Shown: positions 1 through 39,162, numbered from the whole stretch's first letter. The stretch is 63,636 bases of DNA, filler included, from Candidatus Tectimicrobiota bacterium (GCA_016193065.1; 6 parts of 6 records of this genome joined end to end with filler, not necessarily neighbours in it); one strand, 5' to 3'. Numbers and translations: made by a program. Notes: generated from the sequence alone by a model not told the origin.

Positions 1-79
1 TGAAAAATCGGTGCCAACAAGACGGGCTTCTTGAACAATGGATTGAAACGACCTTGCAGGTCGTCTCAATCCTTATAGG

Positions 80-967
80 TTAGCCCCGTTCGCGGTTGAG
101 CAACGTTGATAGCGCCTTGGTCAGTTCGGCCTCGTCCTTCAATGCTTGGGCGAGGCGCTCCGAGAGTTCGGAAAGTACGATACGGACGCTACTGGCGAGT
201 TCGAGACACTCCTCATCGGATCTGTCGTGAACCCCTTCACTCAAGGCACTATGCAACAGCGCAAGGGGGTTGTGCCCATTGATGAGGAGGCTCTGCGGGA
301 TAGCGGTCTTGACCATCGCGAGGGCCTTCGAAAACTGAGTCTCCGATACTGCCGCGTTGAGTTCCGAAATGGCGGTAGCGTCAGCGCCAAGTCTTTCAGC
401 GACTTTGATCACTTCGCCGATGATCCGATTCTTCTGGTTCTCGACAACACGTCGGTAGTAAATGAACGCGCCGACCCCAAGGCCCTGGTTCTCACAGCGT
501 CGACCCTTCAGGAACTCATCCCGGTCAGGTCCGATGAGCTTGATCAGTCTGGCGGGAGTAGGCGGCCCGAAGGTCGGTAGTTCACCGAACTTGTACCCCG
601 ATCCAGCCGCCTGCTGTCGCGCGTTCACCTTCGCAGCCAGCGAGAAGGTCTTCTGATTCTGTTGACAGTTCGAACAGCGGTAGGTCAGGTAAAAGAAGCT
701 GTAGTCGGTCAGAAGTCTAGGAGCATCGTCCCCCACGAAGCGAAAGAAGCGCGGGCCATTGCAGGACTCGTTCGTGCAGTGAAGCTGAAGCTCAGGCGTT
801 CGGATCTGGTCCACCTTCGTCCCGTAAAGACTGCTGTACCCCGCTTCGGCGAGATCCGGAACGCCGATGATCTGATTCGGCGGCGTGGACTCCAGAAACT
901 CGGCAAGGGGAAGGTGTATCGGCTCTCGCTTTACTGTGTTCGCGTCGTCGGCAGTAGGTGGCACCAT
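80..967 (-). CDS. Hypothetical cassette-like protein with Cys pairs (possible Zn finger) and a DUF4145/HEPN-like C-terminal half
   Basis: 295 aa ORF. CTNESC and CSNC motifs; 'GRRCENQGLGVGAFIYYRRVVE' resembles DUF4145 helices (inference). Stop TAA lies inside the R''-like GGGGCTAAC. Confidence 0.65.
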   Translation of the reverse strand: MVPPTADDANTVKREPIHLPLAEFLESTPPNQIIGVPDLAEAGYSSLYGTKVDQIRTPELQLHCTNESCNGPRFFRFVGDDAPRLLTDYSFFYLTYRCSNCQQNQKTFSLAAKVNARQQAAGSGYKFGELPTFGPPTPARLIKLIGPDRDEFLKGRRCENQGLGVGAFIYYRRVVENQKNRIIGEVIKVAERLGADATAISELNAAVSETQFSKALAMVKTAIPQSLLINGHNPLALLHSALSEGVHDRSDEECLELASSVRIVLSELSERLAQALKDEAELTKALSTLLNRERG

Positions 968-986
968 AAGGCCCTCGTTCTAGGGG

Positions 987-1067
987 CTATTGAGTATACC
1001 GATCAGCATAGCACGGTTGCCGAAACGTCCCGCAACAGCCACGATTCTCTTGCCTTTCCAAGGAGTT
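987..1067 (-). promoter_or_regulatory. 81-bp left-border/promoter module, copy 1
   Basis: 71/81 identical to 4699-4779. Minus strand has extended -10 TGCTATGCT, a short inverted repeat, then ACTCAA|TAG at the cargo junction. Confidence 0.75.
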
Positions 1068-1262
1068 ATCAAGAGATCTTCCACTTCCCCAACGGACGTG
1101 AAACACTGCCGTCATGGACGGCATAATCCACTTATGGCTGCCGCAGGTTCGCCAACCCCGTCAATCCGTCTGCCGGACTACGAACCCCTCTCCCTCCTCG
1201 ATTCAAGACATGAGTGTAAATCGTCGTGGTCACGTCCCGATGACCCGACGAAAAGGGCGAGG

Positions 1263-1540
1263 AGGGGACGTTGTTTCCGGGTGGACTTAACGATATCGCT
1301 CAAGACCCGGCAGATCATCGGATCGAGCCGCCCGGACAACCGCGGAGGTTGTCACCCCCAGAAATCAAGGAACTTGTGCTCCAGGATTCTCCATCTTGCC
1401 GATGGCGAGTTGGCAAAACAGCCTCCTTCTCCGAAAAAGAGGCTGGGTCCCGGGGGCATCCAATCTCGACTGTCTGGTCATGCCCTCTCATTCCCCCAAG
1501 GTGGTGAACCTGTCAAGTTCATGCAGAAACAACGTCCCCT
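1263..1540 (-). mobile_element. Mini-element with TIRs derived from a Y1/HUH (RAYT-like) transposase gene, copy 1
   Basis: Ends AGGGGACGTTGTTT...AAACAACGTCCCCT. The minus strand encodes MTRQSRLDAPGT (from 1481) joined to a decayed C-terminal HTH 'LFCQLAIGKMENPGAQVP*FLGVTTSAVVRAA'. Confidence 0.8.
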
Positions 1541-1559
1541 ATCGCGCGCCGACAATTCA

Positions 1560-1680
1560 ATTCCTTCCCCCCGGGTACCCCGGGTGCCCTCTGGGCGTGC
1601 GGGGAAGGGCAGCCTGCCTGCCGCCTGCCTGTGCGTCACACGCAGACAGGCGCTTGCGGCGCAGGCAGGGATGGGGGTGT
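1560..1680. repeat. Nested REP-like palindromic micro-repeats
   Basis: Hairpin ttccttccccc...ggggaaggg contains gggtaccccgggtgccctctgggcgtgc (also at ~14136-14164), followed by cctgcctg...caggcagg units (related unit at ~42393-42421). Confidence 0.65.
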
Positions 1681-1788
1681 TCTTCCAAATCAGAGCGGAA
1701 TCACTTCCGGAAGCGATATCGTCGCGGAAACGAAGATCTTTTCGTCAACGGAGTTTTCTGCCCCTTGACGACAGGGCGATCAGAGGGG

Positions 1789-2082
1789 TTAGAGCCTGCC
1801 CAGCCAATACTCAGGCCGGCGTCGTTGGTGTGCCACAGCCAGAACTTGAACAACCTCGCCGACCTCTCGGTACAAGATAGTGTATGGAAAGCGTTGCAGT
1901 GTGGCTCGCCGAATGTCCGGGCGCCGCTCTACTGGGTAACGATGCGGGGCCTGGCACACGTTCTCCATGGCAGACTCAAACTCAGCCAAATAGGAAGCAC
2001 CAAGACCTGGTTGCCTCGACTCGTAGTAGGCGACGGATTCGAGATGCTCTGCCTCCGCCGCTGTGTGAAACTCGTAGTTCAC
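1789..2082 (-). CDS. Type II toxin, RelE/ParE family
   Basis: 97 aa with 'FHTAAEAE...YYESRQPGLG...RFPYTILYR...VLAVAHQRRRPEYW'. Overlaps the antitoxin by ATGA. Confidence 0.9.
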   Translation of the reverse strand: MNYEFHTAAEAEHLESVAYYESRQPGLGASYLAEFESAMENVCQAPHRYPVERRPDIRRATLQRFPYTILYREVGEVVQVLAVAHQRRRPEYWLGRL

Positions 2083-2303
2083 CGGAGGAGCGCCCGAGCC
2101 TTACGCCTGACTTCTTCGGCCGGGATCGGCTGCACCTCGCCTCGATCAATCTCCCGCGCGCGCCGCTCCGCTTCGATGAGCCATGATTCTCTAATTTGTT
2201 CCTCCGAAAGCGACTCAAGGCTCAAGAGAAGCTTCTGTGCAAGCTTGGCACGGTCTTCCGGCGACAGGTTAAGCGCTTCCTGTTCAATTGCCGTCAAATC
2301 CAT
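2079..2303 (-). CDS. Addiction-module antitoxin
   Basis: 74 aa with 'ALNLSPEDRAKLAQKLLLSL...W..EAERR'; lies directly upstream of the ParE-like toxin. Confidence 0.88.
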   Translation of the reverse strand: MDLTAIEQEALNLSPEDRAKLAQKLLLSLESLSEEQIRESWLIEAERRAREIDRGEVQPIPAEEVRRKARALLR

Positions 2304-2583
2304 AACTCCACCTCACTCCCAATCTCTTCGATCTCTAACGTATAGCTTCTTATCCCTAATGCCGAAGCGGAAGAAAAGCTAAGGTCACGCCCCCGAGGGC
2401 ATTGGGAATAAAGCGTGCTGGACAAAACCGCTGAGCGAAAATCTACCGCTTCCCATGGGGATTGTAAAGCGCAAAGGTGACGGAGGTGGGAGCAAAGAGA
2501 AGGGTACGGATGCGGGTTTTGAGAGGGATTGGGTCCGAGCCGATCCCTTCCAGGATTGTGCGGTACGACCCCAGACGGGACGA

Positions 2584-2850
2584 GGGGGACGTTGTTGCCG
2601 GGTGGACTTAACGATATCGCTCAAGACCCGGAAGATCGTCGGATCAAGCCGCCCAGACAACCGCGGAGGTCGTCCCCCCCGGAAACCTAGCAACCTGGGC
2701 GCCAGGATACCCCATCCTGCCTATGGCGAGACCTCCTTCTCCGAAAAAGAGGCAGGGTCCCGGGGGCATCCAATCTCGACTGTCTGGGCATGCCCTCTCA
2801 TCTTCCCCAAGAAGTGAACCTGTCAAGTTCATTCAGAAACAACGTCCCCT
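2584..2850 (-). mobile_element. Mini-element with TIRs derived from a Y1/HUH transposase gene, copy 2
   Basis: Same orientation and same internal deletion as 1263-1540. Encodes MPRQSRLDAPGTL (from 2791) and 'LAIGRMGYPGAQVARF.G.TTSAV'. Confidence 0.8.
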
Positions 2851-2934
2851 CGCGCTGCAAGCATCAAAAAGCAATTATGCAGGCCTGATCCTTCATTCCT
2901 TATAGGTTATCTGCTATCGCGGACTTTCATCGCT

Positions 2935-3681
2935 CTATAGAAACTTAAGGTAATCTATGTATCTAACTTTATAGCCATAGGCTTCAATGCCGTCTTCCAA
3001 TATATGCAAGAATGCGGCAAAATCTTCCGCTTCTCCGACCGAAAAGGCGGGATGCCTATAACGTCGCCTATCTTCATTAAGAGGCTTCTGCAAACATCTG
3101 CTTCTGAAAAGAGCACCTGATCTATTTCTCCCCAGTACCAGGCCAACGTCTTGATCAAAAAATTCCAGCATCGCATTCTGTAACAGTTTCTCTCCTTCTC
3201 CCGTGGTGATACTGACCCCTGAATCAAGAAGCAGAACAACATCCACGACAAAAGGAACAACTCTGTTGAGAGCCGAAGCCAAAAAGTTTCCTTTGGAGAC
3301 ATACCTGACGCTGTGGGGAGATGATTCGAGGAATAAAATACCATTGTCTCTGCAATACTGCATTATTTTCTCCTTGTGGGGGTGTGCGGAATAACATACA
3401 CACCAAGTGCTGATTCTTTTGGCAGTAAGATCGCCAATTAACTGTGAATCTCGTGAGTGATGTAAGCCGTGGTGCTCTGCGATGTTCTTGGCTATTATGG
3501 TACGTACCAGCGCACAACTTGCAAGAGTGAGACAAGCAGAATCGTGGCTTTCCGACTGAACTAAAACTACGGAGCTTAAGAAAGGGAGCATCAATTGTGA
3601 GATGCGCTCCTTCGTGTACGGCGGGTTGTCGTCATAGATGATCTCCTTTTGTTCCCTTCTTAGGAAGTCGAACAACCCCAT
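2935..3681 (-). CDS. Hypothetical protein in a low-GC cassette
   Basis: ATG 3681 (MGLFDFLRR) with GGAG RBS. AT-richer than the host genes. Bounded on the minus strand by GTTATCTGC (3722-3714) and its exact complement GCAGATAAC (2914-2906). Confidence 0.7.
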   Translation of the reverse strand: MGLFDFLRREQKEIIYDDNPPYTKERISQLMLPFLSSVVLVQSESHDSACLTLASCALVRTIIAKNIAEHHGLHHSRDSQLIGDLTAKRISTWCVCYSAHPHKEKIMQYCRDNGILFLESSPHSVRYVSKGNFLASALNRVVPFVVDVVLLLDSGVSITTGEGEKLLQNAMLEFFDQDVGLVLGRNRSGALFRSRCLQKPLNEDRRRYRHPAFSVGEAEDFAAFLHILEDGIEAYGYKVRYIDYLKFL

Positions 3682-3828
3682 GATCTGAATCTCCATGCGG
3701 AAGAGCTGCAATGGCAGATAACGGCGCGGCGCGCCAGAGCAGCCAGTTGTTCGTAGGTTCCTATCCTCAGAACTCTATGCGGTCGCCCGGACGCTTATCT
3801 GTTGCGAGCCCCGTTCTATTCACCGCGA

Positions 3829-4680
3829 CTACCTGACGACAGGAACCAAGTCTATCTTGTTGCCTGGTATTTCGCCGTCAGGCCAACTAATGACGACCAG
3901 TTCGTAGTGGTGGTAGTCTCGGGGTAACGCCCCTTTGTTGACTGTTTCGCTCACCAGGAGTCCGGTAGCTACATCGCGAACAAACGATGAAATGAAGACT
4001 ACCTTACCGTCCTCATAGCAGTACTCTTCGCCCGAAAAACCCCAAGGACGTTCACTCCACGTCTGAGAAATGACCAGACGGCTGAAATCCTTTGCCAACT
4101 GTGATGACACTGTGCCTTTGGGTTTTCCGCCGCTCAGGGCCACCAGTTTAATGTTCTTCGTTTCCGCAACCCTTTTGCCTGTTGTCAGGTCGTAAGTCTC
4201 GACGCGGGGAATCCCCAAACGAAGATCGGCGTCTTCATTCTGGAAGATGTACCGTGTTTCCCACCGTTGGTCCAAGGTGGCCTTCCGAATCTGAGCCCCT
4301 TGCCCCGTGAAGCGGAAGCGGGCCACGATGGAGCACCGCCGGCTTCCTTCGCATGGGAGGTCAAACGTAACCCTTAATCTTCGCTCCCGATCTTCGTCAA
4401 ACAATTCCGCCCCGTGAGCTACGGCGAAAGGTTCCCCGTTCTCGACAGTCCTGAATTTGGCCTCCGAGGCGATGTCATGCCCAACGTCTCCACCATACGA
4501 ATATGTTACCGAGATGGTGGGTGCAGAAGCGATAGAACTTCCCGGTGTCCTGGCAACTGCATGACCGCTTGTCTTCTTGTGATCACCAGAAGCCGTCTTT
4601 GTATCCTCGGTGCAACCAGCAACGACAAGAACTGCGAATAGGAGGGCGCATGCCAGCCTTCTCAGCAGGGCTTTCATCAT
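3829..4680 (-). CDS. Hypothetical lipoprotein
   Basis: 283 aa with signal peptide and lipobox LVVAG|C; AAGGAGG RBS. Starts just after the ACTCAA|TAG junction. Confidence 0.7.
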   Translation of the reverse strand: MMKALLRRLACALLFAVLVVAGCTEDTKTASGDHKKTSGHAVARTPGSSIASAPTISVTYSYGGDVGHDIASEAKFRTVENGEPFAVAHGAELFDEDRERRLRVTFDLPCEGSRRCSIVARFRFTGQGAQIRKATLDQRWETRYIFQNEDADLRLGIPRVETYDLTTGKRVAETKNIKLVALSGGKPKGTVSSQLAKDFSRLVISQTWSERPWGFSGEEYCYEDGKVVFISSFVRDVATGLLVSETVNKGALPRDYHHYELVVISWPDGEIPGNKIDLVPVVR

Positions 4681-4698
4681 TATCCTCCTTCCTGCGAA

Positions 4699-4779
4699 CT
4701 ATTGAGTATGCTGGTCAGCATAGCACGGTTGCCAAAACTTCCCACAACAGCCCCGCTTCTCTTGCCCTTCCAGGGAGTT
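4699..4779 (-). promoter_or_regulatory. 81-bp left-border/promoter module, copy 2
   Basis: Repeat of 987-1067. Perfect inverted repeat TATGCTG-AC-CAGCATA immediately before CTCAA|TAG. Confidence 0.75.
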
Positions 4780-4985
4780 GAGAAAACACATCCCGCCTGA
4801 GCGCACTTCATGAGAAACAATCTCTGCGATCCATCCCCGACTTTCTGGTGGAGCAAGAGTTTAACCCGAAGAGGAGCTGGTAGTTGTCGGTGGGCCAATT
4901 TTAACCCCTTCCGGTCTGGGGGCACAAGGGGATTTTTCAGCGTCCGGAACGATTCCAAAGCCCTCGGGGGGGGCGGGAGGTCTTC

Positions 4986-5079
4986 CGTTCATCCTTCGAC
5001 ACACTCAGGACGAACGGAGGAAGTCTTGAAATTGCTGAGGATTTACCGCTTGTGGTTCGACAGGCTCACCACGAACGGA
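4986..5079. repeat. REP-like palindromes (CCGTTC...TTCGACAGGCTCACCACGAACGG family)
   Basis: Two units; the same motif occurs inside the MITEs at 39849 and 42231. Confidence 0.7.
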
Positions 5080-5143
5080 AAAGGTCCGATGGAGGAAAGG
5101 CCCCCTGAATGTAGGGAGGACTTTCAAGTTGCTCCTCATCAGG

Positions 5144-5488
5144 TCAGGGAACAAACATTTCCTGCAGAACCGCCAGTACTGAAGCCACCGCGCTGGGTGC
5201 TAAGCGTCCCAATGGTCTCACCAATCGCTCGGTGTCAACCGTGCGTAACTGGTCGACTGCAACGAATCCCGCCCGCCCCTGAAAGCGGCATCGAACGCGC
5301 CATGGATAGGCACGTCCTCCCGTTGTCATAGGGGCGACAATTACTGTGCGAAGATGATGATTCAATTCGTCAGGAGAAACCACGAGGCAGGGACGCGTCT
5401 TGCGAATTTCGCTGCCGCGCGTGGGATCGAGCTGGACCAGGTAAACCTCGCCGCGAAACGGGGTGTCCCGCTCTATCGCCACTCCCAT
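5144..5488 (-). CDS. mazF: MazF/PemK family endoribonuclease toxin
   Basis: 'RGEVYLVQLDPTRGSEIRKTRPCLVVSPDELN...DQLRTVD' PemK signature. Confidence 0.93.
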   Translation of the reverse strand: MGVAIERDTPFRGEVYLVQLDPTRGSEIRKTRPCLVVSPDELNHHLRTVIVAPMTTGGRAYPWRVRCRFQGRAGFVAVDQLRTVDTERLVRPLGRLAPSAVASVLAVLQEMFVP

Positions 5489-5724
5489 TCCTCTTCGTCA
5501 AACCGCGTCGTTGTCGGCGGGTCAAGAAGCCGGTCGTCGCCCTGCTTCCGCATCCGCCGGGCTGCAGCCGCCCAACCTGCCCGAGGTCGGGCCGCTCTGC
5601 GTATCACAATGCGCCCAGGCTCGGCTTGCAGTTCGACTTCGTCCGGGAGCTGAGATTCCTCCAACAGCACCTTGGGGAGGCGTATACCGCGTGAATTACC
5701 GATCCGCACAATGCGAGTCTTCAT
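5473..5724 (-). CDS. mazE: AbrB/MazE family antitoxin
   Basis: 'MKTRIVRIGNSRGIRLPK' AbrB fold; overlaps the toxin start. Confidence 0.93.
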   Translation of the reverse strand: MKTRIVRIGNSRGIRLPKVLLEESQLPDEVELQAEPGRIVIRRAARPRAGWAAAARRMRKQGDDRLLDPPTTTRFDEEEWEWR

Positions 5725-5749
5725 CAGACACCTCAGTCAACGTGCTTAT

Positions 5750-5779
5750 ATTGTAATCACGCAGCAAACCGGTTGGCAA
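5750..5779 (-). promoter_or_regulatory. Putative sigma70 promoter of mazEF
   Basis: TTGCCA-18 bp-TACAAT, 26 bp upstream of the ATG. Confidence 0.6.
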
Positions 5780-5833
5780 GAGCATTCATGAGGGGGTATT
5801 TCCCGCTGCGTACGGGGGATTGGTCTTGCCGTC

Positions 5834-6200
5834 TCAATGATTGGCGGGGCGGGCGGACACGAACCACTCCTTGCCCTGACGCCCGGGGGCCGAGTTCGAT
5901 GGCTCGTACGCCGTGAGGAACGAAAAGAAAGGGCCGAAGAGGCGCTCGATTTCGTCGCGCCGGACCGGGAAAGGTGGGCCGCCCGTGCCATCCCGCACCG
6001 GCCAGAAGTTTGCCAGAAAGTAACCTCCGGGTTTCAGGATCTGGAGAACCATCTGGACATACTCGGGGCGCCTCTTGGGATAGCCCAGCCGGGAGAAGAG
6101 TCAGGGGGGGCGGATCTTTTTTCAAGTGAGCGACCAGTGGAGGTGTACCCGCACCCAGCTCCTAGTGGTCCTTATTGCTGTTGTAGAGAGTTTCCCAGAA
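5834..6200 (-). pseudogene. Thiopurine S-methyltransferase-like pseudogene, copy A
   Basis: FWETLYNSNKDH*ELG...; two internal deletions relative to the copy at ~8182-8770, including loss of SAM motif I. Confidence 0.75.
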
Positions 6201-6361
6201 CTACGGGTCACTCACAGAAGATCCGGGAGGGTGAGCAACTGTCTATTCACGGTGCGTTCCTACGTACAGACGCCGAAATGTCTTTTACTTCTTGCCCGAC
6301 CGCCCCTCACCCTTCCCCTCTCCGCACCCAAAGGGTACCCGGGGAGAGGGATGGGGAAAGG

Positions 6362-6402
6362 AAAGGCGGTGCTGTGGTCCACCGAGGTGCGCAGAACCGG
6401 CA
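6362..6402 (-). pseudogene. Duplicated fragment of the pdxA 3' region
   Basis: Encodes LPVLRTSVDHSTAF; near-identical to ~8926-8966 (LPVLRTSVDHGTAF). Confidence 0.7.
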
Positions 6403-6461
6403 GAGAAAAGAGGATGGACAGTCGCGTTGGGGGGAGAGTCAGACATGACTCACGATCCTGC

Positions 6462-6749
6462 CTAAGCTGCCGACAATCGCACGACGCGCAATTTCTTCCG
6501 GCGCCGCTCCGCCCGCCACAGATCATACTGCACCTGCTGGTTGAGCCAGCTTTCCGCCGTCGTATTGAAGGCAATCGACAGGCGAACGGCCATCTCAGGG
6601 CTGATCCCAGCGCGGCCGTTCAGGATGCCGGACAGGGTCTTGCGGCTCACGCCCAAGGCCTTTGCGGCGGCGGTCACACTCAAACCCAACGGCTCCAGAC
6701 ACAACTTTCGGAGCACTTCACCAGGGTGGGGAGGATTGTGCATCAACAT
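6462..6749 (-). CDS. higA: HigA family antitoxin (XRE HTH)
   Basis: '[12 protein letters not shown]...[31 protein letters not shown]'. Confidence 0.92.
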
Positions 6750-6758
6750 GCTCTCACC

Positions 6759-6812
6759 TCAATGATAGTCCTCGTAATCTACTTCCTCGGCATTTTTTCC
6801 CCCAGAGGAAAA
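6759..6812 (-). pseudogene. higB: 3' remnant of higB toxin
   Basis: Reads GKNAEEVDYEDYH* just upstream of higA, the canonical HigB C-terminus. The rest of the gene is missing and an in-frame TAA lies upstream. Confidence 0.75.
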
Positions 6813-6873
6813 TTATCTCTGGGAGCGATGTTGTCGCTGCGACGAGGAGTTTTTCGGCGTGGACGGCTTTGGA

Positions 6874-7194
6874 CTAGGGCATCAACTGCACCAGTCGGTC
6901 ACGGACCGAATCGCGAAACAACACTTCGATCTCAGCGATGTCGTCGTGCAACACATCCACGATTAGAAATCCTTCTTCCGGGTGAAGTGCAATCGTGCGG
7001 TGCCCTTTACCCCAAGGCCCTTTCGGATGCGGCAACGCGTACATTGTGGCGCAAAAATCGTCTCCGCACCGACAGCGGTCAACCACGTTCAAGCTGCTCA
7101 CTCTTTGCGCCAAGGCAATCTCGCCCTGGGCGTCGAGAAGTCGCGCCAGTTCAGCAGCCAACTCTGGAAACTGTTCTGCCAAACTGAACTTCAT
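6874..7194 (-). CDS. Hypothetical protein with a CxCxxxxC motif, probable cassette gene
   Basis: 106 aa with 'VVDRCRCGDDFCAT'; follows a degenerate attC. Confidence 0.7.
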   Translation of the reverse strand: MKFSLAEQFPELAAELARLLDAQGEIALAQRVSSLNVVDRCRCGDDFCATMYALPHPKGPWGKGHRTIALHPEEGFLIVDVLHDDIAEIEVLFRDSVRDRLVQLMP

Positions 7195-7237
7195 GCTTAG
7201 GCACCTTTTCTAAGTCGTGAGTCGTTGTCCTAGGCTC

Positions 7238-7292
7238 CAGGTGAGCCGCGAGAGCTTTGCGAGCGGAGCTCAGCCGCCGCCTTTGTTAGCCG
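7238..7292 (-). repeat. Degenerate attC site
   Basis: GGCTAAC-AAAGGC...TGAGC..CGC / GCGGCTCA-CCTGGAGCC-TAGG. R'' and inner arms are recognisable; the GTT of R' is lost. Confidence 0.55.
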
Positions 7293-7501
7293 GTCTCGGG
7301 ACTCCGTACCTTCTTTATTGCCGCCAGGATCTCATCAAGCGTCAGATCCTTGAACACGTCTTCGCGTTCCTCCGTGTAGTCTCCGTAACCTGTCGTGAAC
7401 TGGTTCAGAAACCGCACGGTGTCTACTATGCCCATCTCCTTAGAGAGCAGGTCAATCGCGTGTCGCGTAATCTCACTCAAGGGTTTTGCCTGGACATTCA
7501 C
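7286..7501 (-). CDS. Putative antitoxin partner of the PIN toxin
   Basis: 71 aa with 'RFLNQFTTGYGDYTEER'; 4-bp overlap with the PIN gene; stop lies in R''. Confidence 0.8.
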   Translation of the reverse strand: MNVQAKPLSEITRHAIDLLSKEMGIVDTVRFLNQFTTGYGDYTEEREDVFKDLTLDEILAAIKKVRSPETG

Positions 7502-7938
7502 TGCGTCACCTCCGCAATCAGCTCAAGCGGGGACACCACTTTGGTCTGTCCCGTATCCACCGCTTTGGCTCGTTTCAGAAATTGATCGTCGCATGTACAG
7601 AAGTAATCGGCCTTTGCTGCCACCGCCGAGGCCAGATGGAGCGCATCAACGGGTTTGATCCCTTCCGGTTGTAGTGCTCGTGCGCGTTCTTCCACTTGGT
7701 TGTCGATGGGAATGAACACTGTCGCTTTGCTTAATACTTTGAGGGCATACTCTTTTCGTACTGGATGCGGGTTGCGCTCGAGCTCGAATACAAGCGTATC
7801 GGAGGCCATCAACTCCACTTGCCCGGCTTCACAGAGCGCCAGGACCCCCAAAATAGCTTCCGCTTCTACTGCAATCCGAGGCTTCGTCTTGGTGTCAAGT
7901 GGGCGCTGAATGCTGCACATGTCGAGGTAAATCTTCAT
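7498..7938 (-). CDS. PIN-domain (VapC-like) toxin
   Basis: 'KIYLD...RP.D...EAEA...DALHLASA...DYFCTCDD' PIN acidic residues. Confidence 0.9.
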   Translation of the reverse strand: MKIYLDMCSIQRPLDTKTKPRIAVEAEAILGVLALCEAGQVELMASDTLVFELERNPHPVRKEYALKVLSKATVFIPIDNQVEERARALQPEGIKPVDALHLASAVAAKADYFCTCDDQFLKRAKAVDTGQTKVVSPLELIAEVTQ

Positions 7939-8181
7939 AATAAGAGTCTACCTTTTGACTTCTTGGGTAGCGATGTACCGCGAAGAACGGCTATTGAGTC
8001 TACTGCGTCTATTCCTGCTGTATATCTCGCAGAGTTCTCCCTTGCGAGAAAAAGCCAATTCCATTGCAATATCGATTACTTACCTTGGATTTGTCAAGCA
8101 TCTTCTCATCCCCCCACACTGCCGATCTTGCAGTCTATCCGGGTATCAAGCCGCAGTGTATCCCCGGGCGAACCCCAAGCC

Positions 8182-8770
8182 CCTCACAGCCGATCGGCGG
8201 GGCCGGCGGACACGAACCACTCCTTGCCTTGGCGCCCGGGGGCGAGTTCGATGGCTCGTACGCCGTGAGGAACGAGAAGAAGGGGCCGAAGAGACGCTCG
8301 ATCTCGTCGCGCCGGACCGGGAAAGGTGGGCCGCCCGTGCCATCCCGCACCGGCCAGAAGTTGGCCAGAAAGTGTCCTCCGGGTTTCAGGATCTGGAGAA
8401 CCATCTGGACGTAATCAGGGCGCCTCTTCGGATCGATCGCGCAAAAGCAGGTGTATTCCCAGATCACGTCGAAGAAAGCAGGATAAATCTCCGGCAACTC
8501 GAAAATATCCCGGCATTCGAAGCGGAGGCGCCCGTCCCGATCCCCGCCGATCTTCTTGGCCTCGTTGATCGCGGTCTCGGAGAAGTCAAATCCCCAGACC
8601 TCATAACCCAGCCGGGAGAAGAGCCGGGCGTCGTGGCCGCGCCCGCACCCGAGAACGGCAACCTTGCCTTTCGAGGGTGGATCTTTTCTTAGGTGAGCGA
8701 CCAGTGGGGGTGCGGCGGCACCCAGCTCCCAGTGGTCCGCATCGCTGTGGTAGAGGGTTTCTCAAAATCG
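8182..8770 (-). pseudogene. Thiopurine S-methyltransferase-like pseudogene, copy B
   Basis: F*ETLY (TGG>TGA)...VAVLGCGRGHDA...WEYTCFCAIDP...GGPPF. A 1-bp deletion near 8240 shifts the C-terminus; no start codon seen. Confidence 0.8.
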
Positions 8771-8814
8771 CTGATCGCTAACGGATAATTCTGAGAGTGA
8801 AGGATTGTTCGGAT

Positions 8815-9837
8815 TCACAGTGTGATCCCCGCTTCTCTTTTCCGGCGCTTCCGGGCCAGTTGGGCGGCGACTTTGATGGCCTCGATCATGCTCTTGGGGC
8901 TGGCAACTCCTTGCCAGGCAATGTCGAAGGCGGTGCCGTGGTCCACCGAGGTGCGCAGTACGGGCAAGCCCAGGGTTACCGAGACGCTCCCCTCAAAGTC
9001 GTAGGTCTTGGCCGCAATGTGTCCCTGATCGTGGTAGAGGGAGAGCACGCAATCGTATTTGCCCGCCAGCGCCAGATGGAAGACCGAATCGGCCGCCACC
9101 GGGCCATCCACTGCAACCCCGCGACGCCGGGCATCCTTGATCGCGGGTCCGATTTTTTCGATTTCCTCCCGCCCCAGAAGTCCTCCATCTCCTGCGTGGG
9201 GATTGAGGGCGGCAACTGCGATGCGCGGACGGGGCGTGCCGAGTGCTCTCATCTCTTCACGGATGCGGAGCAGGGTAGTGAGTACATTCTTGTATGTGAC
9301 TTCTCTCAAGGCGGCGCGCAGTGACAAATGACGCGTGAGGAAGAAAATCTTGAGCCTGCCGCACACGAACAGCGTGAGCGGCTCGCCGCCGCCGGAAAGC
9401 TCCGCCAGAAGTTCCGTGTGCCCGATCCCGCGGGCGCCGGCCCGGTGAATCGCCTCCTTGTGGATGGGCGCGGTGGCAATGGCGTCCACGATGCCCGCGC
9501 GAGCCAGTTCGAAGGCCTTTTCCAGGTAAAGGAGGGATGCCTTGCCCGCGGCGGCCGATATCTTCCCCGGCACCAGCTTGCGGGTTCCGAGCCCCGCAAC
9601 TTCAAAAACCGTCACGGTGTTTGGTCCAGTTTTCAGCGTCTCCAATGTGCGCACGCTTTTCAGATTTGCCTTGATTCCCACGGCCCGGGCGCACTCTTTC
9701 AGAATTTTGGTTTCTCCGATGATGATCGGATGACACACCCGGTGGAGACTGCGGGAGGCAAGAGCCTTGAGCGTGATTTCAGGACCGATGCCAGCCGGGT
9801 CTCCCGGGGTGACGGCAATGACCGGCTTTCTCTTCAT
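8815..9837 (-). CDS. pdxA: PdxA/PdxA2 family 4-phosphohydroxy-acid dehydrogenase
   Basis: GDPAGIGPE, GHTE, NPHAG, YHDQGH and RTSVDHGTAFDIAW motifs. Confidence 0.93.
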   Translation of the reverse strand: MKRKPVIAVTPGDPAGIGPEITLKALASRSLHRVCHPIIIGETKILKECARAVGIKANLKSVRTLETLKTGPNTVTVFEVAGLGTRKLVPGKISAAAGKASLLYLEKAFELARAGIVDAIATAPIHKEAIHRAGARGIGHTELLAELSGGGEPLTLFVCGRLKIFFLTRHLSLRAALREVTYKNVLTTLLRIREEMRALGTPRPRIAVAALNPHAGDGGLLGREEIEKIGPAIKDARRRGVAVDGPVAADSVFHLALAGKYDCVLSLYHDQGHIAAKTYDFEGSVSVTLGLPVLRTSVDHGTAFDIAWQGVASPKSMIEAIKVAAQLARKRRKREAGITL

Positions 9838-10039
9838 GGTTTGTCGTTTACACCGACCTTCTCTCTGTTGGGAATTCTTCGCTACAGAATGATTGGCGTC
9901 TATTATAGATGATCCGGGAAAAATTGCATTGACTTCCCGGGGTTAAATTCTTTGTGCGGAGCAAAAAAAGGGGGCGTTTTTCCCTGATGATCCGCACAGG
10001 CGTGTTTAGCCGGTTCATTTCCGCAGGAGGATGATCTAG

Positions 10040-11140
10040 ATGGAGACTGGGAGGCTGATGGGTATGGCCCGTTCACTTCTCCACGGGCGCAGGCGAGATT
10101 GTCTTCAGGCTCCAGCGAGAGCGGCAGTGCTATTGCTGGCGGCGTTTCTGCTGGCCCCCGCCTTGCTCGCGGCGGCTCCTGCCGGCACGGGCCTGCAGGC
10201 CGTCAGCGACGGGGCCAGGAAAGAAGGGACGCTCAAGCTCTACGCGCCTTCCACGCTGGGCCCCAGAGGAGCCCACCTCCTTCAGGAAGGAGTAAAGAAA
10301 AAATACGGGGTGGATCTGAACATCGCTTACACCTCCTCGGGCTCCATGACCCGGGACGTGGCGAAGGTGGTCACCGAGCTGGCCGCCGGCGCCCGCCCCA
10401 CCTGGGACATAATGCTGGTTACGGACGCCCACTACATTACTCTCGTGGAAAATGATTTTTTGGAGCGTGCCGATTACGGAGCGCTGGGCATCGATCCCAA
10501 GGCCATTGTCTATGACGGCGCCGCCGTGGCTTATGCCACCCAGTTCGTGGCTCCGGCCTACAACACGCAGCTCATCAAGCCGGCGGACGTTCCCAAGAAA
10601 TGGGAAGATCTGCTGGATCCGAAATGGAAGGGAAAAATCGGGGTCAGCACGGCCACTCACCACTGGGGCCGGCTCGCCCAGGTCTGGGGGGATGAGAAGA
10701 CGACCAAGTACGTGCGGGCCCTGGCCGAGCAGAAGATCGTCAGAGCACGGCTCCCTGAAGTCTATACCCGGCTTCAGTTGGGGGAAGTGCTGATTGCCGC
10801 GACCATGACGGACAGCCACATCGACGAGGCCAAGGAGAAGGGGGCGCCCATCGGCTTTATTGAAGCGGTTGAACCGATCATTGCCACCCACTACCTGGCG
10901 GCGCCTCTCAAGGGAGCGGAGCACAAGAATGCGGCGTTGCTCCTCGTCGCGTTCCTGGTGAGCCCGGAGGGCCAGGCGATCTGGGGCAAGGAGCAGGGTC
11001 AGACTTCCATGTTTGCCAAGGGGAGCCCGGCTTATAACTATGTGCAGAAGAAGAACGCCGTCTCGCTGGAGAAGAAATTCGCCTTGGGACGGTTTGAGGA
11101 TCTCACGAACAAGTACGGGAAGCTTCTGGGCTTCCGGTAA
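10040..11140 (+). CDS. ABC transporter substrate-binding protein (Fe3+/AfuA-like)
   Basis: Signal peptide; 'YNT.LI...P..WEDLLDPKWKGKI'; AGGAGG RBS. Confidence 0.85.
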   Translation: METGRLMGMARSLLHGRRRDCLQAPARAAVLLLAAFLLAPALLAAAPAGTGLQAVSDGARKEGTLKLYAPSTLGPRGAHLLQEGVKKKYGVDLNIAYTSSGSMTRDVAKVVTELAAGARPTWDIMLVTDAHYITLVENDFLERADYGALGIDPKAIVYDGAAVAYATQFVAPAYNTQLIKPADVPKKWEDLLDPKWKGKIGVSTATHHWGRLAQVWGDEKTTKYVRALAEQKIVRARLPEVYTRLQLGEVLIAATMTDSHIDEAKEKGAPIGFIEAVEPIIATHYLAAPLKGAEHKNAALLLVAFLVSPEGQAIWGKEQGQTSMFAKGSPAYNYVQKKNAVSLEKKFALGRFEDLTNKYGKLLGFR

Positions 11141-11165
11141 GCAACCGGCTTTGGGAGGGATAGTC

Positions 11166-12218
11166 ATGATGGGGCGGCTAGTTGCATTTTTTGCCTGCGC
11201 CGTTTTCGCCGCGGGAGTTCCGGGATTCGTGGAGGACGCGCCTGCGGCAACGGCCGCCAAAGTTTCTCTGCAATCGGTCATCGACGGGGCCAGGAAGGAG
11301 GGGGTCCTGGAATTCTACGCCTCCGCGGCCATGGGGCCTGAGGGGGGGCGCGCCATCAAAGACGCGCTCAATGGCAAGTTTAGGCTCAACCTGGATCTCA
11401 AGTTCACCGGCTCGGGTTCCATGACCCGGGATGTTGCCAAGGTCGTTACGGAGTTGTCGGCCGGGGCCCCTGCTACCTGGGACATCATGGTGGTCAACGA
11501 CGCGCACTACGCGACCCTGGTGAATAACGAGGCCCTGGACTCGGTGGATTGGGGGGGGAGTTTCGGAATTGAACCCAAGGCGATCTTTTATAACGGGCTG
11601 GCGGTGGCTGTCGCTACGCAGTTCGTGTCCCCGGCCTACAACAATCAACGGGTCAAGCCGGCCGACGCCCCCAAACGGTGGGAGGATCTCCTGGATCCCA
11701 AGTGGAAGGGGAAGATCGGTGTTTCCTCGGCAACTCACCACTGGGCCCGCCTGGCCCAGGTCTGGGGGGACGAGAAGACCACCAAGTTTGTGGAAGCGCT
11801 CGCCAAGCAAAGCCCCGCGCTGGGACGCGTTCCCGAGGTTTACACCCGCCTGCAGTTGGGGGAAACCTTGGTGGCGGCGACCATGGTGGATGATTACATC
11901 GACCAGGCCAAGAAAACCGGGGCTCCCGTGGTGTTCATTGACAATCCCGATCCGATCATTGCCACGCACTTCCTGGCCGCTCCTCTCAAGCGCGCCAAGC
12001 ACAGAAACGCCGCCATTCTCATAACAGCCTTCCTGGCCAGCCCGGAGGGGCAGGCGGTGTGGGCGAAGATCATGGGGCAGACGTCGATGTACTTCCAGGG
12101 AACCCCCGCCTACCAATTTGCCCAGAAGAAAAACGTGGTGCCTCTCGACTACAAGTTCGCCCTGACCCAGTTAGAGGACCTGAGCAGCAAATACGGCAGG
12201 CTGATCGGATACCGGTAA
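11166..12218 (+). CDS. ABC transporter substrate-binding protein, tandem paralogue
   Basis: Highly similar to the upstream protein; ATG 11166 follows GGGAGG. Confidence 0.85.
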   Translation: MMGRLVAFFACAVFAAGVPGFVEDAPAATAAKVSLQSVIDGARKEGVLEFYASAAMGPEGGRAIKDALNGKFRLNLDLKFTGSGSMTRDVAKVVTELSAGAPATWDIMVVNDAHYATLVNNEALDSVDWGGSFGIEPKAIFYNGLAVAVATQFVSPAYNNQRVKPADAPKRWEDLLDPKWKGKIGVSSATHHWARLAQVWGDEKTTKFVEALAKQSPALGRVPEVYTRLQLGETLVAATMVDDYIDQAKKTGAPVVFIDNPDPIIATHFLAAPLKRAKHRNAAILITAFLASPEGQAVWAKIMGQTSMYFQGTPAYQFAQKKNVVPLDYKFALTQLEDLSSKYGRLIGYR

Positions 12219-14102: not shown

Positions 14103-14200
14103 TCCCTGTTCACTCCCTCCCTTTCCCTCCCCCCGGGGTACCCCGGGTGCCCTCTGGGCGTGCGGGAGGGATGGGTGGGGGGCGTTTTCGGATTGGAGTT

Positions 14201-18980: not shown

Positions 18981-19080
18981 NNNNNNNNNNNNNNNNNNNN
19001 NNNNNNNNNNNNNNNNNNNNNNNNTTAATTAATTAANNNNNNNNNNNNNNNNNNNNNNNNNNNNNNNNNNNNNNNNNNNN
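18981..19080. other. Artificial contig linker (also at 39692-39791, 44131-44230, 52803-52902, 58889-58988)
   Basis: Identical N44-TTAATTAATTAA-N44 six-frame-stop spacer; genes are cut at its edges. Confidence 0.97.
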
Positions 19081-35519: not shown

Positions 35520-38287
35520 GCCGGGGAAGGCAACAGGGCTTCCCGGATCCCCTCCCGGACCGCCTGAATCTTCTCCTCCCCGACCATCTTCATCCCCTGG
35601 AGGTCGGTTACGTAGAAAACGTTGATGGCCCGGTTGGCCTCGGTGGAAATCTTGGCCAAGTAAATATCGATCCCGAGTTGGTAGAGCGCATTCGTGATCC
35701 GGTAGAGGTTCCCCATCAGGTCCGGGCAGACGACCTCGATGACCGTGTGGGTGTCAGAGGTCCGGTTGTCGAGTTCGATCCGGACCGGCACGGCAATCCC
35801 CGCCTCGCGCCGGAAAGGCGCCGAGCGCTGGCGGTTGGCCAGCAAGTCTTCGACCCGCTTCTCCCCTTCCAGGATCGCCAGCAGGTCTTCCCGGATGCTC
35901 TCCCAGACCCGCTCGTCGTAAATGGGAGTCCTCTCCAGGCTCTCTACCTGTAAGGTATCCACGGCAATGCCGTCGTTTCGGGTATAGATCTGGGCCCCCA
36001 GTATATTGATGTTCTTGGAGGTCAGGGTGCCGGCGATTTTGGAAAACACTCCCGCCTTGCCGATCGTGGAGACCATCAACTCCGAGTAACGAACCTCGTC
36101 GTTGTGGGTGTAGTGGATCCGCAACTTGTCATCCCCCAGGGAAGTGGTCAGACGCACGTGGCGCGTGATGGTCTCGGCGGGCATGGACAAAATGTACTTG
36201 TAGGGCATGGCCTGAAAGTAATCTTCTACCGCTTCCCGGCCCACCTCGCGAGCCAGGCGCCGGACGACTTCCTCCTTCATGCGGGCCACCTGCTCCTCGA
36301 TGGATGTCTCCGGCTCTTCCACTCCTTCCAGGACATCGAGCGCTTTGTGATAAATCTCCCAGAGGAGGGCCCCCTTCCAGACGGTCCACACATCGGGACC
36401 CACGGCCCGCAAGTCGGCGTAAGTGAGCAGGTAGAGCAGGCGCAGGTTCTCCACCGTGGACACCGTCTTGGCAAACTCGGCCACCACTTTTTTTTCGTTG
36501 ATGTTCAGGCGCTGGGCCGTATGGCTCATGAGGATGTGGTTTTCTACCAGAAGTTCCACCTGCTCGATGAGGCGAGAGGGAAACCCCATGCGTTCCATGG
36601 CCTCCCGAGCCATCCTTACGCTGTGGGGGATGTGCCCCCCTCCCCGCCCTTTGCCCACATCGTGAAACAGGACAGCCATCTGCAGAGGCAGGCGATTTTC
36701 CAGGTTCCGGTAAATGGCGGCCAGTTCCTGTAGTTCCGGCTCCTCCGCCGTCTCCAGATCGTCCAGGATCCGCAAGGCCAGCAGCGTGTGCTCATCCACC
36801 GTGTAGCGATGGTACAGGTCGTACTGCATATGGCAGATAATCGCCGCGAACTCGAGAATGTAGCGGCCCAGGACCCCGGTTTCGTGCATCAGGCGCAACG
36901 TCTCGGAATAGCCCGGCCTTTTTAGGATGCTCACGAGGATTTCACGGGCCTCGCTGGAGGACTGAAAGGCACCGTCGATAAGCCAGAGGTGGGAGTGGAT
37001 CAGCCGCTTGACATCCTCGCTCAACTGAGCCCCGTGATTCTGGCAGGGTTGGAAGATCCGCAGCAGCAGCAGCGGGTTCTCGACCAGGATGTTGCGCGAC
37101 TCCTCGGGAATCCGCAATTCCCTCCGGAACAGGTAGAGCCCCGGCTCGATCTCCTTTTGCCGGAGAACGCGCAGCACCCTGTTGACCAGCCGGCTCGGCT
37201 CCCGGCAGCGTTCCAGGACCATCTTCGAGTAGTGATGGATCGTGTTGGCCTGCACGTAGTAATCCTTCATGAAGTACTCGACGCCCAGTTGCTTCTCGTC
37301 ATCCTCGTAGCGGAGCCGCCTGGCCACCTCTCCCTGAATCTGCAAAACCAGGTGATCGAACTTGCGCCCGGACAGATAGTGGAGATCGTTGCGGACCCGC
37401 ATGAGGAAGTCGTAAGCCTCGGTGACCTCCTCGAGATCATCCCGGCCGATGAGGCCCTGGCGGTGCAGGTCTTCCGGATAACGGAATCCGAAACGTGCCA
37501 CGGCGGTCCACATGGCCATGTGGTAATCCCGCAACCCTCCCGGGCTCTCCTTGATGTTGGGCTCCAGGAGATTGGGCGCTTCGCCGTACTGGGTATAGCG
37601 AGCCTCGCGCTCGCGCAGTTTCTGCTCGATAAATGTGTTTACCCCCTTGCCCAGCACATGGCGCTTGCAGGCCGACGCGAAGGAATGAAAGATGCGGGCG
37701 TTGCCTTCCAGGAAGCGAGCCTCCATGAGAGAGGTCTTGGCGGTCAGGTCGGAGCTGGCAATCTTGAGACAGTTGGCGATGGACCGGCTGCTGTGTCCCA
37801 CTTCAAAGCCGATGTCCCACAGGAAGGTGAGAGTTTCCGTAACCACGGCATCCAGATACTGATCGGGTTTCTTGTCGTACAGGAACATGACATCCAGATC
37901 GGAAAAGGGGTTGAGCTCCCCCCGTCCGTAGCCACCCACAGCCACCACGGCGAAAGTCGGCTGGAACTTGCCAATTTTCCGCGCGCAGCCTGCCGCCGCC
38001 AGGCTGTATATCTCTTTGAGGACCACATCGACCAGCAGGCCGCTCCGGGTGGCAATCCGAACCCCGCCGGCCCCCCGTTCGTGCTCGGCTCGGATTTTCT
38101 CTTTCTCCTCGCCGACCAGATCGCGGGCCTTTCTGACGAGTTCCTGCCGCCCCGACTGGGTAAAATTAAAGGCCGCGCTGAGACCCTTCAGGCGAGAGCG
38201 AAACTCTCGATCTTCCCGAGACTCTATCTTGGCAACCCCGATGGCCACGATTCCTCCACCCTCCGCTTCCCCGCCCGGGGATGGCAC
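35516..38287 (-). CDS. glnD: [Protein-PII] uridylyltransferase/uridylyl-removing enzyme
   Basis: AVGGYGRGEL.P.SDLD, NIKESPGGLRD, YHRYTVDEH, HD, two ACT domains. Start may be GTG at 38248. Confidence 0.95.
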   Translation of the reverse strand: MPSPGGEAEGGGIVAIGVAKIESREDREFRSRLKGLSAAFNFTQSGRQELVRKARDLVGEEKEKIRAEHERGAGGVRIATRSGLLVDVVLKEIYSLAAAGCARKIGKFQPTFAVVAVGGYGRGELNPFSDLDVMFLYDKKPDQYLDAVVTETLTFLWDIGFEVGHSSRSIANCLKIASSDLTAKTSLMEARFLEGNARIFHSFASACKRHVLGKGVNTFIEQKLREREARYTQYGEAPNLLEPNIKESPGGLRDYHMAMWTAVARFGFRYPEDLHRQGLIGRDDLEEVTEAYDFLMRVRNDLHYLSGRKFDHLVLQIQGEVARRLRYEDDEKQLGVEYFMKDYYVQANTIHHYSKMVLERCREPSRLVNRVLRVLRQKEIEPGLYLFRRELRIPEESRNILVENPLLLLRIFQPCQNHGAQLSEDVKRLIHSHLWLIDGAFQSSSEAREILVSILKRPGYSETLRLMHETGVLGRYILEFAAIICHMQYDLYHRYTVDEHTLLALRILDDLETAEEPELQELAAIYRNLENRLPLQMAVLFHDVGKGRGGGHIPHSVRMAREAMERMGFPSRLIEQVELLVENHILMSHTAQRLNINEKKVVAEFAKTVSTVENLRLLYLLTYADLRAVGPDVWTVWKGALLWEIYHKALDVLEGVEEPETSIEEQVARMKEEVVRRLAREVGREAVEDYFQAMPYKYILSMPAETITRHVRLTTSLGDDKLRIHYTHNDEVRYSELMVSTIGKAGVFSKIAGTLTSKNINILGAQIYTRNDGIAVDTLQVESLERTPIYDERVWESIREDLLAILEGEKRVEDLLANRQRSAPFRREAGIAVPVRIELDNRTSDTHTVIEVVCPDLMGNLYRITNALYQLGIDIYLAKISTEANRAINVFYVTDLQGMKMVGEEKIQAVREGIREALLPSPA

Positions 38288-39162
38288 TGATCGTATACGG
38301 CGCGCAGGCGGTCCTGAACCACCTGAGTATAGATCTGTGTCGTCGTGATGGCGGAGTGGCCCAGCAGTTGCTGGACCACCCGCAAATCCGCCCCCCCCTC
38401 CAGCATGTGCGTAGCGAACGAATGCCGCAGGGAATGGGGCCCGATCTTCTTTCCCAGACCCGCCCTGCCGGCATATCTTTTAAGTATGCGCCAGAAACTT
38501 TGCCTCGACAACTTTCCTCCCCGGCGGTTCACGAACAGGACGCCGTGATCCTTGCCGCGAATCAGCTTCGGTCTTGAGGAGGCAAGATAGTGCAGCACTT
38601 GCCGGCGAGCCGGCGCCCCCACCGGCACGATCCTCTGCTTGCCTCCCTTCCCTGTGCAGATGAGGAAGCCAAGTCCCAGGTTCACGGCCGAAACCGTCAG
38701 GCTCAGCAGTTCGGAGACTCGCAGTCCCGTCGCATAGAGGAGCTCCAGCATCGCTTGGTCGCGAACCCCGATGGGAGTGTTTCCCTCCGGAACCTGCAGC
38801 AGCTTTTCCACTTCGGCACGGGAGAGAACCTGGGGGAGGCGGCGCCAGTGTCTGGGCGACTTGAGCTCGGAAGCCGGGTCCCAGGCCAGCCACCCCTCCC
38901 GGAAGGCAAATTGGAAAAAAGACTTAACGGCGGAGAGATGCCGGGCCAGAGAGGCGACCGACCTACCCCGCTTCTGCAATCGGGATAGGTACTCCACGAT
39001 GGCCGCAGGGGTAATCCCGCCCAGTTCTTCCACGGAGTTCACCCCGCAGGCCCCCAGGAATCCCACCAAGTCCCGGCGGTAAGCCTCCACAGAATTGGCC
39101 GCCAGTCGCTTCTCAACCCGGAGAAAATGGACGAACTCGGCGACCAGATCTTCTTTTTTCAT
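38224..39162 (-). CDS. xerD: Tyrosine recombinase XerD
   Basis: LYATGLRVSE, GKGGKQR, HSLRHSFATH, LGH..ITTTQIYT, HPRA; no IntI-specific insertion seen. Confidence 0.93.
   Translation of the reverse strand: MKKEDLVAEFVHFLRVEKRLAANSVEAYRRDLVGFLGACGVNSVEELGGITPAAIVEYLSRLQKRGRSVASLARHLSAVKSFFQFAFREGWLAWDPASELKSPRHWRRLPQVLSRAEVEKLLQVPEGNTPIGVRDQAMLELLYATGLRVSELLSLTVSAVNLGLGFLICTGKGGKQRIVPVGAPARRQVLHYLASSRPKLIRGKDHGVLFVNRRGGKLSRQSFWRILKRYAGRAGLGKKIGPHSLRHSFATHMLEGGADLRVVQQLLGHSAITTTQIYTQVVQDRLRAVYDQCHPRAGKRRVEESWPSGLPR

Follow-up and report, generated by a model that had tools for sequence, protein, structure and literature searches.

A probable decayed integron-type cassette array with AAT junctions in an uncultured groundwater bacterium

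Chromosomal integrons typically hold cargo that lies on one strand and is rich in toxin-antitoxin modules. Promoter-bearing cassettes that lack an open reading frame (ORF), and fused cassettes missing part of attC, are known (PMC8876359), and in Treponema intI is transcribed toward attI and the cassettes (PMC3607928). Also on record are attI-derived sites inside arrays (PMC12901181) and a GTT triplet that tolerates changes in class 1 assays (PMC2811028). Here we analyzed a window of 63.6 kb, the whole stretch of DNA under study, from an uncultured groundwater bacterium. Its variable region (positions 1-8200, minus strand) follows pdxA and a gene for a TPMT-like methyltransferase. All of the cargo is co-oriented on the minus strand and comprises toxin-antitoxin pairs and orphan genes, with 4 toxin-antitoxin modules counted by Pfam. 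A sequence-only reading of this DNA had proposed cassettes without attC, inserted between non-integron borders by a dedicated enzyme, or else an integron class with an AAT-core attI. We find that the region is probably a decayed, atypical integron-type array, whose borders would be small non-coding modules that bear promoters and have an attC-like end. The anatomy, an intI remnant, the co-variation of cassette starts and ends, and polymorphism in the source population are observed; known integron behavior does not account for AAT at three junctions. Throughout, a caret marks a junction or cut, and minus-strand positions run downward.

Cassette starts were compared with cassette ends. In an internal cassette, GTTATCTGC (3722-3714) is complementary at 9/9 positions to GCAGATAAC (2914-2906), and this pairing of GCAGATAAC with G^TTATCTGC is a canonical integron boundary. 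Cargo 1 starts with TAGCCCC (989-983), complementary at 7/7 positions to GGGGCTA (87-81) of its own R'' box (87-79), and cargo 3 starts with TAGCCG (7993-7988), complementary at 6/6 positions to CGGCTA (7292-7287) in the R''-like box CGGCTAAC (7292-7285). All of these complements had been listed before, and all can be read directly in the sequence. At some cassette ends an R''-like ...CTAAC box includes the stop codon. The right-hand ends of cargo 1 and of the internal cassette are homologous to each other (CCGCGA-N7-TAACCTATAAGGAWTGA, 24/30 positions), and the variable N7 plus the following TAAC of each pairs with its own cassette start. Such co-variation is the classical cassette signature. 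With co-oriented genes, a stop codon in the ...CTAAC box and a start complementary to their own R'', the modules do behave as integron-type cassettes, as the sequence-only reading held.

The same co-variation fixes the register of the unusual junctions, since it places AA exactly where GT is expected. GGGGCTAAC (87-79) pairs with AATAGCCCC (991-983), and cargo 3 repeats the AA pattern, pairing AATAGCCG with CGGCTAAC. An R' box in which GT has been replaced by AA is therefore real and in register. All three junctions read AAT in place of the integron GTT. Canonical G^TT exchange would be expected to give ...ATTAGCCCC, whereas ...AATAGCCCC is observed; the latter fits either a site family with a different triplet or a putative cut placed one base further (AA^T with GT^T).

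On the left, ACTCAATAG has 3 minus-strand copies (995-987, 4707-4699 and 7999-7991) against 0.18 expected, a count reached in 0/100 shuffles, and it does stand at the three cargo junctions. The idea of one shared left border held only in part. The motif is present at all three, but only copies 1 and 2 are the ends of a single 81-nt direct repeat (987-1067 and 4699-4779; 88% identical; alignment score 112 versus 14.6 for shuffled sequence), and similarity to copy 3 is limited to the final 13-19 nt. Once the 9-mer is removed, border 3 aligns at chance level, with 62/500 and 262/500 shuffles equaling it. Border module 1 begins with GTTGGCGAA (1156-1148), complementary at 8/9 positions to its own R''-like TTCGGCAAC (1024-1016), and finishes with CGTGC, a 7-bp hairpin (1010-995), CTC and AAT (991-989), which is a small-scale version of the layout of the 85-30 site described below. 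Border 3 likewise runs from AAC through a hairpin to AAT. Promoter-like hexamers were found upstream of 2/3 junctions, at 1072-1044 (9/12 consensus positions) and 8097-8068 (10/12), and the promoter scan found none in border 2. These two sites, predicted to be sigma-70-like promoters, may read into the cassettes.

We considered the 81-nt repeat as a structured RNA and rejected it, as the border folds were no better than shuffles (fold z -0.75, 0.27 and -0.06). The two-sequence border alignment holds 2 double-sided changes, both outside the 81-nt core, which is too few for a structured-RNA claim.

On the right, TAACCTATAAGG occurs twice (82-71 and 2909-2898) against 0.02 expected, and two modules do end alike. 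The shared end had been described as standing in place of an attC stem. That description fails for cargo 1, where 78-66 opens a hairpin (85-30) that begins in the stop codon and is flanked by AAC and GTT. Its predicted energy is -17.3 kcal/mol, compared with -7.4 +/- 2.2 for shuffled sequence (z -4.49; matched by 0/200 shuffles), and its stem is the longest among all AAC...GTT candidates in a scan of the whole window. One of the two TAACCTATAAGG copies is thus the 5' arm of an attC-like hairpin, and for this copy the observation matches what the sequence-only reading had itself named as refuting it, a motif that is simply the 5' arm of an ordinary attC family. The inverted-order R''/R' pattern (RYYYAAC/GTTRRRY) is approximate at 85-30 (GGCTAAC...GTTCAAG) and in the 3722/2906 pair, and absent at the three AAT junctions.

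Next to border 1 lies the end of an integron integrase gene. The minus-strand frame 1250-1135 encodes GHRDVTTTIYTHVLNRGGRGVRSPADGL..., and its sole family matches are the integron-integrase models TIGR02249 and NF011946; against TIGR02249 it scores E 6.8e-8 over profile positions 287-315 of 315. The solved IntI4 structure 2a3v (PDB) is a further match. Among 459 candidate longer homologues, 421 matched at E <= 0.001, several of them named integron integrase by their source. In tblastn, 38/38 full-length IntI queries match the remnant, and elsewhere in the window they match only XerD (38224-39162), an ordinary XerD. Neither profiles nor tblastn found an intact intI with the family-specific extra domain in the 63.6 kb. 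The earlier statement that the window has no intI thus holds for an intact gene and misses the C-terminal remnant: there is no working intI in the window, though there once was one. Nor is there support for modules without attC or for borders foreign to integrons, given the 85-30 hairpin, the remnant 70 nt upstream of border 1, the canonical GTT/AAC cassette (3722/2906) and a GTT at a breakpoint at position 1156. That GTT abuts the remnant, and the ACTCAATAG junction 165 nt further on carries AAT.

The 1156 breakpoint came from contigs of four groundwater-metagenome runs (X1-X4), in which 71-90% of the words of 1-9000 are present. In two of the four (X2 and X3; side 37), contigs compared with 1-12000 go from 8192 to 1156 by way of 11 other letters and omit 7035 nt. 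A variant without 1157-8191 is therefore present in the population. One of its breakpoints, 8192, is the end of TPMT homology, and the other, 1156, is the G of GTTGGCGAA, a GTT. The haplotypes consequently differ to the left of this GTT and agree to its right, a divergence that fits what an IntI-type exchange would leave. In the shorter haplotype the TPMT frame continues, without a shift, through the final eight codons of the intI stump. Further joints, 2893 to 4697 (side 27), 1087 to 1669 (side 20) and 1761 to 987 (letters between not known), fall loosely near previously proposed boundaries; they are possibly repeat-derived, and we did not use them as evidence. Excess depth over the borders may reflect cross-mapping between the two copies.

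We suggest that the integrase gene was reduced to its last ~30 codons and that the array was scrambled by two insertions resembling miniature inverted-repeat transposable elements (MITEs) and by duplication of part of the pdxA-TPMT flank. Each ACTCAATAG left border would mark where a small non-coding module has its 3' end, and two of these modules have a predicted sigma-70-like promoter. The ends would be built as miniature attC sites: AAC, 5 nt, a 7-bp hairpin, 3 nt and the triplet. Possible parallels are ORF-less cassettes that bear a promoter and an attI-like docking site. Cassettes would have been placed behind the modules by IntI-type single-strand recombination and transcribed from the border-module promoters. 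The AAT junctions could be fused or dead sites, or could reflect a lineage whose crossover is offset by one base.

For comparison with working integrons we used 80 IMG/VR loci encoding IntI relatives (42-58% identity). Candidate attC sites were taken upstream of intI (74, of which 66 were distinct); 50 of the 66 were aligned, leaving out ten that exceeded 75 nt and six whose folds were atypical. A first model had no base pairs and was discarded. The covariance model that we kept, R2, has 20 pairs, represents one attC type and serves as a stand-in for IntegronFinder's model. As a control it recovered 188 sites at E <= 0.01 in the 80 loci, training sites included, 180 of them opposite the intI strand and 8 on it. 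Loci L140 and L156/L157 have attC matches downstream on the intI strand; directly after the intI stop they read ATTGATAAGGATAG^TT..., followed by a cassette with a matching R''. In L150, an unrelated integron locus in which intI also points toward the cassettes, the junction (7000-7030) reads GTGGATAAGGATAG^TAGGGC, one T short compared with TTAGG/TTCGAG in L140 and L156. The departure in the window is of the same kind, which hints that the offset may not be unique. A later junction in L150 also reads ...TTTAG^TAGAAAGG. The likeness of the intI tail and stop-codon region to L150 came to just 11/12 nt, and we treated it as chance. A scan of viral contigs for more ATTGATAAGGATAG attI sites returned at least 118 stretches, with no new IntI-adjacent site among the matches listed; one listed stretch has an upstream YxH-type motif, in a frame full of stops.

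Several observations weigh against a decayed integron-type array. With filters off and E <= 10, the attC model finds nothing in 1-8200, and its two window matches (8.0 and 7.5 bits) both lie outside that region. By this measure the hairpin at 85-30 is no canonical attC of the modeled type; it has no extrahelical bases, and its sequence departs. Its stem is a perfect 15 bp, including one G-T pair, without bulges; asymmetry is limited to the spacers (6 nt versus 3 nt), and its R' (GTTCAAG) is off consensus. The other 5 of 6 intergenic folds tested are no better than shuffles. The hairpin at the border end is just 7 bp, and AAT is unable to pair with AAC. Three different cargos share AAT, which a canonical G^TT crossover does not predict, and cargo 2 (3829-4680) lacks start/end complementarity: the match already called loose, TAGTTCG with CGAACAA, is 6/7. 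Because the 1156 breakpoint stands between the intI remnant and border 1, their adjacency may be secondary. No relatives of the border or hairpin were found outside the window in genome contigs, metagenome contigs or the 80 IntI loci: the exact border 19-mer has 0 matches in genome_contigs and 2 in metagenome_contigs, both unrelated and eukaryote-looking, and borders plus the 85-30 hairpin reach a best E of 0.15 against the 80 loci (blastn). Finally, all four supporting runs come from one study, possibly the source of the window itself. A strict attC consensus scan gave 8 matches in the whole window (2 within 1-8200, neither convincing), and a loose heuristic gave an unspecific 63 and 66 candidates per strand.

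A serious possibility, though in our judgment an unlikely one, is that the borders stem from duplication of a segment with a promoter and 5' leader, in an islet behind TPMT where strains differ in the genes they carry. Homologous, Campbell-type recombination between strains would have stacked three versions of it in tandem, and the complementarity would be coincidental, helped by the shared TAG/CTAAC. The degenerate pdxA 3' end and TPMT copy (5839-6402, 77-93% identity) is what a single crossover with a related strain would leave. TPMT is followed by border 1 within ~170 nt in the variant and by border 3 within ~195 nt in the window, and promoter-like hexamers stand in borders 1 and 3 and after TPMT'. 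With TAG and CTA taken as fixed, just 4 + 3 informative complementary bases are left, a chance of ~1 in 16,000 before allowing for choices while looking; with both taken as free, the chance odds are far lower. Against a promoter islet stand the co-variation between R'' bases and cassette start at two homologous ends (one being canonical GTT...AAC), the intI remnant and the variant breakpoint at GTT. The right-hand conserved motif, moreover, is 13-17 nt followed by unrelated sequence, too short for homologous exchange. An assembly chimera, with the tandem of three TPMT-downstream versions an artefact of co-existing strains, strikes us as barely credible. Polymorphism in the source population is high here (20 joints, 15 of them listed), and contigs break at repeats, for example at 1062. 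Independent contigs of X3 and X4 (6323-7089 and 6323-7235), however, connect HigA with the pdxA' fragment and so speak against a simple chimera. In all four runs every module is covered by other pieces, although no single piece among those listed spans the whole region.

A distinct capture system, as the sequence-only reading proposed, would use an HUH (IS200/IS605-like) enzyme or a non-IntI tyrosine recombinase that cuts single-stranded DNA after ...TCAA of the border hairpin and after TAAC, joining dedicated ends. In IS608 a target tetranucleotide precedes the left-end hairpin and TCAA follows the right-end hairpin, and the window, with TAAC^CTATAA-hairpin and hairpin-C-TCAA^TAG, reads like this grammar. 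The ends of IS200/IS605 elements share their hairpin, however, and the left (1010-995) and right (72-40) hairpins here are unrelated in sequence; the right-hand one is flanked by AAC and GTT, and the intI remnant is present. No gene for an HUH enzyme or an extra recombinase was found in the region, the XerD being ordinary. The sole HUH-like trace is a likeness over ~12 residues that we presume between the short ORF with which the two MITE-like repeats begin (MPRQSRLDAPGT...) and the N-terminus of an IS200/REP-associated transposase; the two such ORFs have no Pfam match even at E <= 10. We consider a capture system of this kind very unlikely. The other option in the sequence-only reading was an integron variant with an AAT core. 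Here the AAT sites would be docking sites of an active variant that exchanges strands one base away from the usual position (AA^T to GT^T), with inserted cassettes keeping TAG... and not TTAG.... The sites would sit on small promoter modules, so that each captured gene would arrive with its own promoter, and the system would be active, or recently active, in the groundwater population. Within the reading we prefer, a decayed array with attC-like borders, we hold this active variant to be quite unlikely. The coordinates of the parts of the array and of the neighboring features are collected in Table 1.

Table 1. Features of the variable region and its upstream flank, in window coordinates.
Feature	Position	Strand	Basis or remarks
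attC-like hairpin, 56 nt	30..85	-	GGCTAAC, CTATAA, 15-bp stem, GCA, return stem, ATT, GTTCAAG
Cargo 1, 295-aa orphan ORF	80..967	-	Sequence reading
Border module 1, non-coding	989..1156	-	Starts G^TTGGCGAA at 1156 (population breakpoint); holds hairpin and promoter-like site 1072-1044
intI remnant, last 28-36 codons	1135..1250	-	Catalytic-Tyr motif IYTHV...NRGGRGVRSPADGL; TIGR02249, IntI4 2a3v
MITE-like repeat B	1264..1547	-	Repeat analysis
ParE toxin and antitoxin pair	1789..2303	-	Pfam ParE_toxin, Unstab_antitox
MITE-like repeat A, ~271 nt	2585..2855	-	Terminal inverted repeats AGGGGACGTTGTTTC; repeats D3, D4, I3
Second member of attC-like family	2836..2914	-	GCAGATAAC CTATAAGGAATGA ... GTTGTTT; D15; poor hairpin (z 0.6); abuts repeat A
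Canonical-looking cassette with 258-aa orphan ORF (2935-3711)	2906..3722	-	Starts G^TTATCTGC, ends at R'' box GCAGATAAC
Cargo 2, 283-aa predicted lipoprotein-like orphan	3829..4680	-	No family above threshold
Border 2, second 81-nt repeat copy, ending ACTCAATAG	4699..4779	-	Repeat and alignment analysis
MazE-MazF pair	5144..5724	-	Pfam; promoter-like site ahead at 5779-5750
Degenerate duplicate of pdxA 3' end and TPMT	5839..6402	-	77-93% identity, with deletions; repeat families D2, D7, D10, D13, D17
HigA-like HTH antitoxin, no toxin partner	6462..6749	-	Pfam HTH_3
106-aa orphan ORF	6874..7194	-	No family match in Pfam, NCBIfam, PADLOC
Cargo 3, PIN toxin (7498-7938) and 71-aa partner (7286-7501)	7285..7990	-	Pfam PIN
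Border 3	7991..8104	-	Promoter-like site 8097-8068, then ...GTAGACTCAATAG
TPMT-family methyltransferase frame	8135..8760	-	Pfam TPMT on 8135-8497; frame reading
pdxA	8815..9837	-	Pfam PdxA, E 4.3e-100; conserved chromosomal gene upstream of variable region

Searches with the gene content added little. PADLOC gave nothing beyond a weak PIN-type match for 6 cargo proteins, 12 cargo and flank proteins had no match at E <= 1e-3 in the 80 IntI loci (tblastn), and Rfam gave no meaningful family (whole window at the gathering threshold; 1-9000 at E <= 5). Relatives of pdxA sought for synteny were at best 54% identical and came from many phyla, with no close genome in the genome collection. The rest of the window is ordinary chromosome, with GlnD, AspS, XerD, LapB and GalE. 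The final codons of the TPMT frame are out of register with the duplicate copy, the shift covering the last ~15 codons (8135-8260). The contig of one run has an extra A at 8241, so this frameshift may be a strain difference.

The region and its surroundings also hold repeats and further polymorphisms. The two MITE-like repeats (~280 nt) are 86% identical and share 15-bp terminal inverted repeats, AGGGGACGTTGTTTC. A GC-rich palindrome of 44 nt, REP-like in appearance, stands in the cassette region (1561-1603) and in a distant intergenic region (14123-14166), the two copies being 95% shared. An exact 27-nt repeat occurs three times in the window (5053-5079, 39873-39899 and 42326-42352), with hairpins of the ...CCGTTCGTCCTGAG...GAACGG type nearby. 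Summed contig depth in the bin that holds it, 4801-5200, reaches ~5000 in the runs, which indicates that the stretch belongs to a repeat very abundant in that metagenome. Just upstream of pdxA, at 9939, contigs of 3/4 runs carry a 29-nt insertion polymorphism. Beyond pdxA is a tandem gene duplication, with adjacent paralogues of ~810 nt at 10330-11140 and 11405-12218 (70% identity) and many diverging contigs at 11670-11720. The window has 13 N runs (595 bases), mostly 44-N pairs 12 bases apart (for example 18981-19080, 39692-39791, 44131-44230, 52803-52902 and 58889-58988); they were masked, and none is in the region studied.

What the locus means depends on the AAT junctions. As mere scars, they would make the locus another decayed cassette array in a chromosome, and its interest would be local. 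If the AAT sites work, integron-type recombination can use a non-GTT core with a shifted cut, and current detection models can miss attC-like sites. Poorly sampled phyla would then hold more cassette arrays than have been counted, and the rules for the cleavage site would be looser in nature than in class 1 integrons. The circle junction of cargo 1 provides a prediction: ...ATTGT+TAGCCCC would indicate the one-base offset, and ...ATTG+ATAGCCCC a canonical cut with a mismatched triplet.

Among known systems, the ends of IS200/IS605 elements resemble the window in their subterminal hairpins and in a cut after a fixed tetranucleotide (TCAA, TAAC), but the region has no transposase, dissimilar left and right hairpins, and integron-type neighbors. 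The Treponema-type attI (PMC3607928) shares with the window the order of intI 3' end, short spacer, junction and first cassette on one strand, whereas the integrase of the window is a stump parted from the border by a recombination breakpoint. L140, L156 and L157 have the same order, with attI directly after the stop codon. At their attI sites the sequence is ...GGATAG^TT, carrying the canonical GTT, and bears no relation to the window border; all that these sites have in common with the right-hand motif is the 8-mer ATAAGGAT, which may be chance.

Promoter-bearing ORF-less cassettes and fused cassettes (PMC8876359) are also comparable. Like them, the window has a short non-coding unit with a predicted sigma-70-like promoter ahead of a promoterless gene, an R''-like box complementary to the unit's own start, and a non-canonical next junction. 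The ORF-less cassettes described so far end in a classical attC, whereas here a 7-bp terminal hairpin and AAT form an end joined to three cargos. The window differs from sedentary chromosomal integron arrays, including CALINs (attC clusters without an integrase), in the missing attC-model match, in a best hairpin without extrahelical bases, in AAT at three junctions and in spacers that mostly fold at chance level. It is like these arrays in its co-oriented small cassettes with toxin-antitoxin and orphan genes, in the ...YTAAC stop box, the AAC/GTT hairpin and the start complementary to its own R'', and in having a decayed intI nearby and strain-level gain and loss.

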